Shown: piece by piece, positions 26,000 to 56,451 of the stretch
How positions within the stretch are numbered: the first letter of the stretch is position 1
Layout: every line of letters begins with the position of its first letter
The notes under the pieces: model-generated
Told to the model about the DNA's origin: nothing
Databases searched by the model: none
Seen by the model: only the letters and a program-made list of their open reading frames with translations
Program-made: the position numbers and the translations under genes
NCBI RefSeq assembly: GCF_003334785.1
Contig: NZ_QOWV01000008.1
Length of the DNA: 64,000 nt
Strand: one strand, 5' to 3'
Source: Escherichia coli
GTDB taxonomy: Bacteria; Pseudomonadota; Gammaproteobacteria; Enterobacterales; Enterobacteriaceae

Positions 26000-27403
26000 G
26001 TGTCACTTTCGCTTTGGCAGCAGTGTCTTGCCCGATTGCAGGATGAGTTACCAGCCACAGAATTCAGTATGTGGATACGCCCATTGCAGGCGGAACTGAG
26101 CGATAACACGCTGGCCCTGTACGCGCCAAACCGTTTTGTCCTCGATTGGGTACGGGACAAGTACCTTAATAATATCAATGGACTGCTAACCAGTTTCTGC
26201 GGAGCGGATGCCCCACAGCTGCGTTTTGAAGTCGGCACCAAACCGGTGACGCAAACGCCACAAGCGGCAGTGACGAGCAACGTCGCGGCCCCTGCACAGG
26301 TGGCGCAAACGCAGCCGCAACGTGCTGCGCCTTCTACGCGCTCAGGTTGGGATAACGTCCCGGCCCCGGCAGAACCGACCTATCGTTCTAACGTAAACGT
26401 CAAACACACGTTTGATAACTTCGTTGAAGGTAAATCTAACCAACTGGCGCGCGCGGCGGCTCGCCAGGTGGCGGATAACCCTGGCGGTGCCTATAACCCG
26501 TTGTTCCTTTATGGCGGCACGGGTCTGGGTAAAACTCACCTGCTGCATGCGGTGGGTAACGGCATTATGGCGCGCAAGCCGAATGCCAAAGTGGTTTATA
26601 TGCACTCCGAGCGCTTTGTTCAGGACATGGTTAAAGCCCTGCAAAACAACGCGATCGAAGAGTTTAAACGCTACTACCGTTCCGTAGATGCACTGCTGAT
26701 CGACGATATTCAGTTTTTTGCTAATAAAGAACGATCTCAGGAAGAGTTTTTCCACACCTTCAACGCCCTGCTGGAAGGTAATCAACAGATCATTCTCACC
26801 TCGGATCGCTATCCGAAAGAGATCAACGGCGTTGAGGATCGTTTGAAATCCCGCTTCGGTTGGGGACTGACTGTGGCGATCGAACCGCCAGAGCTGGAAA
26901 CCCGTGTGGCGATCCTGATGAAAAAGGCCGACGAAAACGACATTCGTTTGCCGGGCGAAGTGGCGTTCTTTATCGCCAAGCGTCTACGATCTAACGTACG
27001 TGAGCTGGAAGGGGCGCTGAACCGCGTCATTGCCAATGCCAACTTTACCGGACGGGCGATCACCATCGACTTCGTGCGTGAGGCGCTGCGCGACTTGCTG
27101 GCATTGCAGGAAAAACTGGTCACCATCGACAATATTCAGAAGACGGTGGCGGAGTACTACAAGATCAAAGTCGCGGATCTCCTTTCCAAGCGTCGATCCC
27201 GCTCGGTGGCGCGTCCGCGCCAGATGGCGATGGCGCTGGCGAAAGAGCTGACTAACCACAGTCTGCCGGAGATTGGCGATGCGTTTGGTGGCCGTGACCA
27301 CACGACGGTGCTTCATGCCTGCCGTAAGATCGAGCAGTTGCGTGAAGAGAGCCACGATATCAAAGAAGATTTTTCAAATTTAATCAGAACATTGTCATCG
27401 TAA
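26000..27403 (+). CDS. dnaA: Chromosomal replication initiator DnaA
   Basis: 467 aa from GTG start ([14 protein letters not shown]); AAA+ Walker [10 protein letters not shown]. Confidence 0.98.
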
Positions 27404-32045: not shown

Positions 32046-32144
32046 GCCTGATGCGCTACGCTTATCAGGCCTACGAAAATCTTGCAATGTATTGAATTTT
32101 CATGATTTTGTAGGCCGGATAAGGCGTTCACGCCGCATCCGGCA
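32046..32144. repeat. BIME: two REP elements in inverted orientation
   Basis: gcctgatgcgctacgcttatcaggcctac and gtaggccggataaggcgttcacgccgcatccggca. Confidence 0.7.
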
Positions 32145-41667: not shown

Positions 41668-42000
41668 TCAGTTATCAGGCATTCTGGCCGGTGGAATAAC
41701 CGCATTGGTGGCTTGCGCGTTGGCTTCGCTTTTTTCAACGCGCGAGCGCACCGAGCTGTCTTTGCGGAACACATCCCACGGCAGTAAAAGCGTGTCCATC
41801 ACAGCGGTAAACGGCATATCGAGAATCGCCAGCGACTTAGTGCCCCAGTTGGTTTCATCGTCGCCAATCATGGTTGCGCTGGCGCGGGTGCCGGGATACG
41901 TTCCTTCTTTCCCTCCGGTATGGGACATCACGCTGGAGCATCCTCCGAGTAATGTCATTCCGCTGCATATCATGAACGCTAACAACACATTTCTTATCAT
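41668..42000 (-). CDS. yidQ: Putative lipoprotein YidQ
   Basis: 110 aa from MIRNVLLAFMICSGMTLLGGC (lipobox). Confidence 0.85.
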   Translation of the reverse strand: MIRNVLLAFMICSGMTLLGGCSSVMSHTGGKEGTYPGTRASATMIGDDETNWGTKSLAILDMPFTAVMDTLLLPWDVFRKDSSVRSRVEKSEANAQATNAVIPPARMPDN

Positions 42001-42174
42001 AATAAATTCATCTGTTGATCGTGGGTGTTGGCCTGATGAGTTATAGCGATCCCTTGCTGAAAATAACATCATCATTACGTCGCACTGTGGCGGCTATCGC
42101 ACTTTAACGTTTCGTGCTGCCCCCTCAGTCTATGCAATAGACCATAAACTGCAAAAAAAAGTCCGCTGATAAGG

Positions 42175-42203
42175 CTTGAAAAGTTCATTTCCAGACCCAT
42201 TTT
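42175..42203 (+). promoter_or_regulatory. Sigma32 heat-shock promoter of ibpAB
   Basis: cTTGAAA - 14 nt - CCCATtTt matches the sigma32 consensus. Confidence 0.65.
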
Positions 42204-42305
42204 TACATCGTAGCCGATGAGGACGCGCCTGATGGGTGTTCTGGCTACCTGACCTGTCCATTGTGGAAGGTCTTACATTCTCGCTGATTTCAGGAGCTAT
42301 TGATT

Positions 42306-42719
42306 ATGCGTAACTTTGATTTATCCCCGCTTTACCGTTCTGCTATTGGATTTGACCGTTTGTTTAACCACTTAGAAAACAACCAGAGCCAGAGTAATGG
42401 CGGCTACCCTCCGTATAACGTTGAACTGGTAGACGAAAACCATTACCGCATTGCTATCGCTGTGGCTGGTTTTGCTGAGAGCGAACTGGAAATTACCGCC
42501 CAGGATAATCTGCTGGTGGTGAAAGGTGCTCACGCCGACGAACAAAAAGAGCGCACCTATCTGTACCAGGGCATCGCTGAACGCAACTTTGAACGCAAAT
42601 TCCAGTTAGCTGAGAACATTCATGTTCGTGGTGCTAACCTGGTAAATGGTTTGCTGTATATCGATCTCGAACGCGTGATTCCGGAAGCGAAAAAACCGCG
42701 CCGTATCGAAATCAACTAA
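42306..42719 (+). CDS. ibpA: Small heat shock protein IbpA
   Basis: 137 aa from [17 protein letters not shown]. Confidence 0.97.
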
Positions 42720-42830
42720 TTCCCTAAGGCCGCCTGGCGCGGCCTGACATCTCCATGCTCGCCGTCAGGGAGCATATGCGAATCTTCGGATTTGCAGGTA
42801 CTTACTCGCTTCTTAGAAGGAGAAATGACT

Positions 42831-43259
42831 ATGCGTAACTTCGATTTATCCCCACTGATGCGTCAATGGATCGGTTTTGACAAACTGGCCAACGCACTGC
42901 AAAACGCCGGTGAAAGCCAGAGCTTCCCGCCGTACAACATTGAGAAAAGCGACGATAACCACTACCGCATTACCCTTGCGCTGGCAGGTTTCCGTCAGGA
43001 AGATTTAGAGATTCAACTGGAAGGTACGCGCCTGAGCGTAAAAGGCACGCCGGAGCAGCCAAAAGAAGAGAAAAAATGGCTGCATCAAGGGCTTATGAAT
43101 CAGCCATTTAGCCTGAGCTTTACGCTGGCTGAAAATATGGAAGTCTCTGGCGCAACCTTCGTAAACGGTTTACTGCATATTGATTTAATTCGTAATGAGC
43201 CTGAACCCATCGCAGCGCAGCGTATCGCTATCAGCGAACGTCCCGCGTTAAATAGCTAA
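42831..43259 (+). CDS. ibpB: Small heat shock protein IbpB
   Basis: 142 aa from [17 protein letters not shown]. Confidence 0.97.
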
Positions 43260-43274
43260 CTAGCTATTCTCTTT

Positions 43275-43302
43275 GCCCCGCCATTCTGGTGGGGCTTTTT
43301 TT
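43275..43302 (+). terminator. Intrinsic terminator after ibpB
   Basis: gccccgccattctggtggggc followed by T7 run. Confidence 0.7.
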
Positions 43303-43454
43303 GTCTTACTTACTCAACAATGCGTTAAATTTCGACTGTTTAAGATATTTCGGCACGTTCTTTCCCGTGATAATGTGCGCTATAAGGCAAATCTGCTTCA
43401 CCGATTCAGCCATAATCCGTAGCAATTAAAATGTTATCTCAAGAGAAATGGACG

Positions 43455-45116
43455 ATGAGTGATATAGCATTAACGGTCAGTATTCTGGCTTTGGTGGCAG
43501 TCGTCGGTTTGTTTATCGGCAACGTCAAATTTCGCGGCATAGGATTAGGTATTGGCGGCGTGCTGTTTGGTGGGATCATCGTCGGCCATTTTGTTTCTCA
43601 GGCGGGGATGACATTAAGTAGCGATATGCTGCATGTTATTCAGGAATTTGGCCTGATCCTGTTCGTTTATACTATCGGGATTCAGGTAGGGCCGGGCTTC
43701 TTTGCCTCATTGCGCGTCTCCGGATTACGCCTCAACCTGTTTGCTGTTCTGATCGTCATCATCGGTGGTCTGGTTACCGCCATCCTGCATAAACTGTTTG
43801 ATATTCCACTGCCGGTAGTGCTGGGGATTTTCTCCGGTGCGGTTACCAATACGCCAGCGCTGGGGGCAGGGCAGCAGATTTTGCGCGACCTGGGTACACC
43901 AATGGAAATGGTCGATCAGATGGGGATGAGTTACGCGATGGCGTATCCATTCGGCATTTGCGGGATTTTGTTCACCATGTGGATGTTGCGGGTTATTTTC
44001 CGCGTCAATGTCGAGACAGAAGCTCAGCAGCACGAGTCTTCACGCACCAATGGCGGCGCGCTGATCAAGACTATCAATATTCGCGTTGAGAACCCTAACC
44101 TGCATGATTTAGCCATTAAAGATGTACCGATTCTCAACGGCGACAAAATTATCTGCTCGCGTCTGAAACGCGAAGAAACCCTAAAAGTTCCTTCGCCAGA
44201 TACCATTATCCAACTGGGCGATTTGCTGCATCTGGTGGGTCAGCCAGCGGATTTACATAATGCGCAACTGGTGATTGGTCAGGAGGTCGATACTTCGCTG
44301 TCCACGAAAGGCACTGATTTGCGCGTCGAGCGTGTGGTGGTCACCAATGAAAACGTGCTCGGAAAACGTATTCGCGACCTGCACTTTAAAGAACGCTATG
44401 ACGTTGTTATCTCGCGCCTGAACCGTGCCGGGGTCGAACTGGTCGCCAGTGGCGATATCAGCCTGCAGTTCGGCGATATCCTCAATCTGGTGGGGCGTCC
44501 GTCCGCAATTGATGCCGTTGCCAATGTGCTGGGGAATGCGCAGCAAAAACTGCAACAGGTTCAGATGCTGCCAGTGTTTATTGGCATCGGGCTAGGCGTA
44601 TTGTTAGGTTCTATTCCCGTCTTTGTGCCAGGATTCCCGGCCGCGTTGAAACTGGGGCTGGCGGGCGGACCGCTGATTATGGCGTTGATCCTCGGGCGTA
44701 TCGGCAGTATCGGCAAGCTGTACTGGTTTATGCCGCCAAGCGCCAACCTCGCGCTGCGGGAGCTGGGGATCGTGCTGTTCCTCTCGGTCGTTGGTCTGAA
44801 ATCTGGTGGGGATTTTGTGAATACCCTGGTCAATGGCGAAGGGCTAAGCTGGATTGGTTATGGTGCCCTGATCACCGCCGTTCCGCTGATTACTGTTGGC
44901 ATTCTGGCGCGGATGTTAGCCAAAATGAATTACCTGACCATGTGCGGGATGCTGGCAGGTTCCATGACCGATCCTCCGGCGCTGGCGTTTGCTAATAATC
45001 TTCATCCAACCAGCGGTGCGGCGGCGCTCTCTTACGCCACTGTCTATCCGTTGGTAATGTTCCTGCGCATTATCACCCCCCAATTACTGGCGGTGCTCTT
45101 CTGGAGTATCGGTTAA
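43455..45116 (+). CDS. yidE: Putative transport protein YidE
   Basis: 553 aa from [22 protein letters not shown]. Confidence 0.95.
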
Positions 45117-56270: not shown

Positions 56271-56376
56271 ATATTTGGACAAAACGCAAACTGTGATCGA
56301 TACTCAACTATGCACTAAATACGTCAAAATTCGTGCCGAAATTGCGCGTTCTGCGCGGAACACGTATACTTTCAGT

Positions 56377-56451
56377 GTTGACATAATACAGTGTGCTTTG
56401 CGGTTACCAGCCGCAGGCGACTGACGAAACCTCGCTCCGGCGGGGTTTTTT
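56377..56451 (+). ncRNA. istR: IstR-1 antitoxin sRNA, about 75 nt (IstR-2 would start further upstream)
   Basis: -10 tatact at 56365-56370; 21-nt match to the tisAB leader; terminator hairpin plus T6 at 56426-56451. Confidence 0.6.

Follow-up and report, generated by a model that had tools for sequence, protein, structure and literature searches.

The region described here is that which natively controls the Escherichia coli ibpAB small-heat-shock operon, and in it a sigma-32 promoter is followed by a ROSE-type RNA thermometer in the 5' leader of ibpA; we put the probability of this reading at about 0.96. The element is the E. coli ibpA ROSE-like thermometer itself, a textbook region rather than a lookalike. 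It is already known, with entries in Rfam and RefSeq. The window was the whole stretch of 64,000 nucleotides that was analyzed, and all coordinates refer to it.

The assignment to ibpAB follows from identity to E. coli genomes together with the RefSeq annotation. Positions 42000-42900 matched 5420 of 5426 complete E. coli genomes, as a single copy in each and on the chromosome in all. All listed records were 100% identical, 5415 of the 5420 matching genomes had an identity of at least 99%, and at least 80% of the stretch was covered in 5418 of the 5426. The RefSeq gene order is yidR, yidQ (opposite strand), ibpA, ibpB and yidE. The product downstream of the leader is named small heat shock chaperone IbpA (WP_001243437.1), and a RefSeq sequence_feature called ROSE (NZ_AP019189.1) corresponds to window positions 42240-42312. 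The gene call ibpA made in the first-pass annotation was borne out by the genome identity and the RefSeq entry, and direct reading of 41800-43600 found every sequence element named there in its place. The in-frame TTG at 42300 is merely the first start-like codon of the open reading frame listing, and the annotated ibpA start is the ATG at 42306. The operon is laid out as follows:

42306 to 42719, plus strand: ibpA coding sequence, 137 amino acids, ATG start at 42306-42308, annotated
42831 to 43259: ibpB reading frame, paralogous to ibpA, ATG at 42831
43275 to 43302, plus strand: intrinsic terminator ending the ibpAB operon, a 9-pair stem and a T run

Sub-threshold Rfam matches at 43169-43310 (Hrs1, anti-hemB, PrrF and others) all fell on the ibpB terminator hairpin and were rejected as terminator look-alikes.

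Upstream of ibpA, the following promoter features were found:

42175 to 42181, plus strand: sigma-32 -35 element CTTGAAA, direct reading
42182 to 42195, plus strand: 14-nt spacer AGTTCATTTCCAGA, direct reading
42196 to 42203, plus strand: sigma-32 -10 element CCCATTTT, direct reading, 14 nt past the -35 element
42208 to 42211, plus strand: putative transcription start, most likely G42210

The pattern CTTGAAA-N13-15-CCCATNT occurred once on both strands of the 64-kb window, with 0.01 occurrences expected from 100 shuffles. The sigma-32 consensus quoted in PMC3669281 is NNCTTGAA-N(13-18)-CNCCATAT. The sequence CTTGAAA-N14-CCCATTTT agrees with it, since its -35 element contains CTTGAA, its -10 element is CNCCATAT-like, and the two are within 13-18 nt of each other.

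Species-representative genomes were scanned with the degenerate gene start ATGCGNAAYTTYGAYYTNTCNCC, which returned at least 120 loci; the matches listed span Enterobacterales, Aeromonas, Salinivibrio, Cellvibrio, Rhodobacterales and others. Among the matches listed, 110 distinct leaders of ibpA-like genes (61 from close and 49 from distant relatives) formed the comparative set, and 145 nt of each of 65 Enterobacterales leaders were aligned with MAFFT. In the 65 aligned leaders, TTGAAA of the -35 element and A39, T41 and T42 of the -10 element were at least 90% conserved. CTTGAA lay 105-145 nt upstream of the ATG in 50 of 61 close and 39 of 49 distant relatives, or 89 of 110 leaders among the matches listed, and control windows gave 0-1. 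Genomic SELEX with the RpoH holoenzyme placed a peak in the ibpA/yidQ spacer (PMC5493296), and ibpAB of Salmonella is bound by RpoH (PMC11548764). The sigma-32-type promoter claimed in the first-pass annotation is thus upheld by the consensus match, by its conservation across Enterobacterales and by the SELEX-bound spacer. A scan of 41900-43500 found no sigma-70-like promoter, a result that is weakly consistent with sigma-32 dependence.

Transcription would start at about 42210, because this position is 6-8 nt past the -10 element and hairpin I of the leader begins there. With that start the leader would be about 96 nt long, in agreement with the roughly 100 nt proposed earlier. The published thermometer is 102 nt long as given in a paper that cites it, which is compatible with a start at about 42210. 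A run of eight A residues was also seen at 42153-42160, where it precedes the -35 element by about 15-22 nt and occupies an UP-element-like position. The sequence 5' of the -35 element was not conserved in the 65-species alignment.

The leader also contains a match to a known thermometer family, in the last part of which the Shine-Dalgarno (SD) sequence is paired:

42240 to 42312, plus strand: Rfam ROSE_2 (RF01832) match, the same feature as the RefSeq ROSE entry, 100.4 bits
42280 to 42296, plus strand: hairpin III, the putative thermosensor, from the Rfam structure line, the minimum-energy fold at 20-25 C and RNAalifold

The ROSE_2 match was full length (model positions 1-73 of 73), scoring 100.4 bits where the gathering score is 65, with an E value of about 1e-21, and it sits in the 5' leader immediately upstream of the small heat-shock (alpha-crystallin-type) gene ibpA. 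The ROSE_3 model scored 20.8 bits at the same leader, below its threshold of 43. The 5' arm of hairpin III is the anti-SD sequence CUC-g-CUG (42280-42286), which includes the ROSE motif UCGCU (42281-42285); the remainder consists of the loop AUUU, C42291 and the SD sequence AGGAG (42292-42296). The predicted pairs are U42285-A42292, C42284-G42293, C42282-G42294, U42281-A42295 and C42280-G42296, with G42283 bulged. The Rfam ROSE_2 structure line likewise places CUC-g-CUG opposite CAGGAG. G42283 was unpaired in the Rfam structure, in the ViennaRNA fold and in the RNAalifold consensus, and it was invariant in the 65 species.

A U(U/C)GCU motif opposite the SD sequence is the ROSE arrangement (PMC3669281). 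The motif started 19-28 nt before the ATG in 60 of 61 close and 45 of 49 distant relatives, or 105 of 110 leaders among the matches listed, against a mean of about 1 in control 10-nt windows. The tcgct close to aggag that had been pointed out earlier is therefore present and kept in position, and its reading as a ROSE-type thermometer agrees with both the ROSE_2 score and the RefSeq feature. A mere chance resemblance of tcgct and aggag to the ROSE arrangement was ruled out by the full-length ROSE_2 match and by the difference between the 105 leaders and the control.

We then analyzed the predicted folding of the leader. The ViennaRNA fold of 42210-42311 contained hairpin III and two further hairpins:

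42210 to 42248, plus strand: leader hairpin I, stable, from the minimum-energy fold, with the invariant apex G-CC-N4-GG-G at 42227-42236
42251 to 42272, plus strand: leader hairpin II, stable, core CCUGUCC / GGAAGG, from the minimum-energy fold, within the ROSE_2 consensus

The predicted free energies of the isolated hairpins were -18.5 (I), -9.0 (II) and -4.1 (III) kcal/mol at 37 C, and -16.6, -7.9 and -3.4 kcal/mol at 42 C. Hairpin I still had -13.6 kcal/mol at 50 C, and hairpin III weakened from -5.7 kcal/mol at 25 C to -3.4 kcal/mol at 42 C. At 42 C the pair probabilities of hairpins I and II were at least 0.88. Up to 50 C, the pairs of hairpin II kept probabilities of at least 0.82 in the ensemble and most pairs of hairpin I at least 0.95, with one inner pair of hairpin I at 0.63. 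ROSE elements have two to four hairpins in 60 to more than 100 nt, with stable 5' hairpins and a labile one that holds the SD sequence; the leader fits this pattern with three hairpins in about 96 nt, the 5' two stable and the third labile. The folding z-score of the whole leader was modest (-1.79), and 10 of 200 shuffles folded equally well or better.

The first-pass annotation had also claimed that the SD sequence is occluded at low temperature, and had proposed to check this by folding at 30 and 42 C. The minimum-energy fold at 20-25 C pairs AGGAG with CUC-g-CU, leaving G42283 bulged, and RNAalifold agrees with this pairing; the predicted structure at these temperatures is thus the opposite of an unpaired SD, which had been named as evidence against the claim. 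The comparison of 30 and 42 C gave less. In the full-leader ensemble the pair probability of hairpin III dropped from 0.75 at 20 C to about 0.5 at 37-50 C, and the mean SD pairing probability from 0.73 at 20 C to 0.63 at 30 C, with 0.62 at 42 C. The probability of a fully open SD in the full leader was 0.015 at 20 C, 0.031 at 30 C and 0.041 at 42 C. Since the predicted open-SD probability is nearly flat, the 30 versus 42 C comparison in silico is weakly informative, and the thermodynamic prediction by itself shows no clean switch. ViennaRNA leaves the non-canonical pairs of ROSE hairpins out of its model and offers a competing fold. Several known thermometers likewise have no predicted temperature-dependent structural change (PMC3981793). 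For thermometers of the ROSE class nearest-neighbor folding is not decisive, and its outcome counts neither for nor against thermosensing.

Comparison among species gave further evidence for the three hairpins. In the 65 aligned leaders the core of every hairpin was invariant or nearly so. The E. coli three-hairpin structure could be paired in 86.2% of the alignment cells, compared with 78.6% after shuffling and 36-54% with slid partners. There were 176 doubly changed cells against 57 in shuffles, and none of 500 shuffles reached any of the observed measures. The upper stem of hairpin I was 94% paired with compensatory changes in 5 of 8 pairs, and hairpin II was 90% paired with compensatory changes in 5 of 9 pairs. 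These compensatory changes in the alignment support hairpins I and II, for hairpin I in its upper stem. Hairpin III was 99% paired, almost without covariation; because both of its arms are nearly invariant, it is supported by conserved pairing potential and not by compensatory change. In the MAFFT alignment, pairing in the lower stem of hairpin I reached only 51%, for which misplaced indels are the probable cause. Run on the 65 species without the E. coli fold, RNAalifold returned hairpin I in its upper stem as well as the SD hairpin, including the bulged G. It returned neither hairpin II nor the lower stem of hairpin I from these 65 species, probably because of loop gaps in the MAFFT alignment.

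Some ibpA leaders contained tens of extra nucleotides, inserted behind hairpin I in L044, L063 and L097 (Rahnella) and behind hairpin II in L066:8259-8412 (Budvicia aquatica). All four retained the three conserved cores, and the promoters of L066 and L044 lay outside the 145 nt aligned.

The layout agrees with what has been described for E. coli. The sequence is the same as that of the E. coli ibpA ROSE-like thermometer (RF01832), with an end-to-end model match and three hairpins, and there is no difference between the two. The SD sequence stands in the 3' hairpin opposite UCGCU with a bulged G, identically in both. The ROSE_2 model covers hairpins II and III only (42240-42312), whereas the published element also includes hairpin I (42210-42248). 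The primary paper on this thermometer is reportedly that of Waldminghaus et al. (2009, RNA Biol 6:455). Two stable hairpins and a weak one fit its title, which names structural elements both stable and unstable. A preprint describes the leader as three stem-loops, SL1-SL3 (bioRxiv 10.1101/2020.04.20.050740), which matches the predicted layout.

Related thermometers share part of this design. The rhizobial ROSE elements, such as ROSE1 of Bradyrhizobium japonicum, have in common with the E. coli leader the U(U/C)GCU anti-SD, the bulged G, the SD sequence in the 3' hairpin, stable upstream hairpins and an alpha-crystallin-type gene downstream. Rhizobial ROSE promoters are of the sigma-70 type rather than the sigma-32 type. 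Rhizobial elements have up to four hairpins (PMC3669281), compared with three in E. coli ibpA. The ibpA leaders of Pseudomonas also combine a sigma-32-type promoter with a ROSE hairpin and are induced about 4-6-fold between 25 and 42 C, but they are 61-62 nt long with two hairpins, whereas the E. coli leader has about 96 nt and three (PMC3669281). The fourU thermometer of Salmonella agsA likewise has a gradually melting hairpin that occludes the SD sequence before a small heat-shock gene. It differs in its UUUU anti-SD, in lacking a bulged G and in having two hairpins (PMC3185406, PMC3669281), and the family found at this leader is a different one.

In the mechanism that we favor, RNA polymerase-sigma-32 (RpoH) would recognize CTTGAAA-N14-CCCATTTT and initiate near 42210, so that the build-up of sigma-32 after heat or protein-folding stress would raise the ibpA mRNA. 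In the transcript, hairpins I and II would stay folded at all physiological temperatures. Hairpin III, which is predicted to be short, imperfect and marginally stable, with AGGAG paired to U-C-(G)-C-U around the bulged G, would mask the ribosome-binding site at low temperature; upon warming it would melt gradually and let the ribosome bind. In a third layer of control, taken from published work, IbpA oligomers bind the leader and repress translation until IbpA is drawn onto aggregates. The sequence elements, the family match, the folds and their stabilities, and the conservation and covariation come from the present analysis, and thermoregulation, sigma-32 binding and IbpA autoregulation come from the literature. 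Support for melting of the SD hairpin and for translation that both depend on temperature comes from the literature, and our own computation is only suggestive.

The published control by IbpA raises a different possibility. The leader may be mainly a switch operated by IbpA, such that titration of IbpA onto aggregates, and not RNA melting, induces ibpA, with a minor part for the thermometer. IbpA bound to hairpins I-III might then keep translation off at any growth temperature. In a purified system translation is repressed by IbpA, which binds the 5' UTR (PMC10474464; also PMC10410725), and IbpA's self-repression through the leader in vivo, relieved by titration onto aggregates, has been published since 2020 (bioRxiv 10.1101/2020.04.20.050740; PMC10474464). 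Aggregation-prone proteins de-repress ibpA at 37 C without heat (bioRxiv 10.1101/2020.04.20.050740; PMC10474464). In the preprint, weakening and strengthening of SL1 or SL2 raised expression alike (bioRxiv 10.1101/2020.04.20.050740). The nearly constant computed SD accessibility would fit such a switch, within the limits of folding prediction for ROSE hairpins described above, and so would the several nucleotides of hairpins I and II that are invariant in the 65 species beyond the needs of pairing. However, an E. coli ibpA leader fusion behind a temperature-independent promoter had an activity of 14 Miller units at 25 C and was induced 4-fold at 42 C (PMC3669281). ROSE hairpins of Pseudomonas melt and admit ribosomes in vitro in protein-free conditions (PMC3669281), and the authors of the autoregulation study themselves call the two controls layered (bioRxiv 10.1101/2020.04.20.050740). 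We therefore regard a leader operated mainly by IbpA as possible but on the whole unlikely, and as a complement to the thermometer that does not exclude it.

The invariant nucleotides deserve separate description. In the 65 Enterobacterales leaders, the bulged G42227, CC 42228-29, GG 42234-35 and G42236 at the apex of hairpin I were invariant or nearly so, as were CCUGUCC 42253-59 and GGAAGG 42265-70 in the core of hairpin II, while the outer and flanking stem pairs of both hairpins covaried. Among the matches listed, GCC-N4-GGG was present in 59 of 61 close leaders and CUGUCC-N3-7-GGAAGG in 54 of 61; similar motifs were found in a few alpha-proteobacterial leaders, for example L035, L100 and L115. 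The conservation beyond pairing, together with the alike effects of the SL1 and SL2 mutants, suggests sequence-specific recognition. Tentatively, and from sequence conservation, the invariant apex and core might be determinants recognized by IbpA, or might form a tertiary contact that positions hairpin III; we would not give this idea even odds. If true, it would account for the finding in the preprint that weak and strong SL1 and SL2 mutants alike raise expression. We found no published definition of the IbpA recognition site in RNA.

It could also be proposed that the competing fold is the functional low-temperature structure, in which the start codon, and not the entire SD sequence, would be hidden. 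This fold joins the anti-SD CGC 42282-42284, in which the bulged G of hairpin III lies, to GCG 42308-42310, made up of the G of AUG and the CG of the Arg codon; it also joins UCAG 42290-42293 to UUGA 42300-42303. ViennaRNA marginally prefers it at 30-37 C as the minimum-energy fold, and 99.5% of the cells of the 65-species alignment allow the CGC/GCG pairs. However, CGC belongs to the ROSE motif and GCG to the conserved Met-Arg codons, and because both sides are constrained otherwise, their complementarity may be incidental. The inner helix was 58% paired in the 65 species with zero compensatory changes, below the shuffled controls, and the competing fold was therefore rejected as a conserved structure. 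Hairpin III is instead the structure seen in the Rfam consensus and in the RNAalifold result, and in the preprint a strengthened SL3 abolished expression (bioRxiv 10.1101/2020.04.20.050740). A functional role of the competing fold in place of hairpin III is accordingly very improbable.

That the promoter and thermometer resemble known elements by chance and have no regulatory role can practically be dismissed, as we found nothing in support of it, the promoter pattern was expected 0.01 times, the Rfam E value was about 1e-21, the promoter and thermometer positions are kept in about 100 species of gamma- and alpha-proteobacteria among the matches listed, the hairpins covary, and the experimental literature supports function (PMC3669281; bioRxiv 10.1101/2020.04.20.050740; PMC5493296).

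The leader of the second gene of the operon was also investigated, and a hairpin of the same kind was found:

42805 to 42822, plus strand: ROSE-like SD hairpin in the ibpB leader, predicted fold, UCGCU at 42806-42810 and AGGAG at 42818-42822

Its predicted fold is CUC-g-CUUC/GAAGGAG and contains a bulged G, 25 nt upstream of the start codon of ibpB (ATG at 42831). With ibpA it shares the UCGCU...AGGAG hairpin, the bulged G and repression by IbpA (bioRxiv 10.1101/2020.04.20.050740), but its upstream hairpins differ from those of ibpA. RefSeq does not mark it, because ROSE_2 gave only 15.2 bits here against the threshold of 65. An ibpB RNA thermometer was reported by Gaubig et al. (2011), as cited in bioRxiv 10.1101/2020.04.20.050740. 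The UCGCU...AGGAG motif also precedes ibpB in L021, L056 and L105. Neither of the two ibpB-type leaders scored had CTTGAA at 105-145 nt upstream, and ibpB thus appears to be without a sigma-32 promoter of its own.

A sigma-54-like -24/-12 candidate, TGGTAAATGGTTTGCT, was seen at 42640-42655 in the 3'-terminal part of the ibpA coding sequence. Its GG/GC spacing is correct, it agrees with 8 of 11 consensus positions, and it was the sole such site in a scan of 42400-42834. A sigma-54 promoter has presumably been reported for ibpB. Three more stable hairpins were predicted in the ibpA-ibpB spacer (42727-42796), none with a T run after it: a GGCCGCC...GGCGGCC-like one at 42727-42745 just past the ibpA stop, one at 42755-42775 and one at 42777-42796. 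They may serve the processing or the stability of the bicistronic mRNA.

Matches to other RNA families were seen elsewhere in the window. The istR Hfq-binding antitoxin RNA gave a full-length Rfam match at 56322-56451 (plus strand; 150.1 bits, threshold 45), as did AsdA, the antisense RNA of the dnaA mRNA, at 26510-26590 (minus strand; 101.9 bits, threshold 52). The sRNA ES036 (CssrF) matched at 32067-32109 (minus strand) with 44.8 bits, just over its gathering score of 37.6.

The sigma-32 promoter and the ROSE thermometer had been recognized in the first-pass annotation from the raw sequence, with exact coordinates. The comparative set of ibpA leaders gives a compact map of the fixed and the covarying positions, which could guide experiments on the recognition of the mRNA by IbpA.
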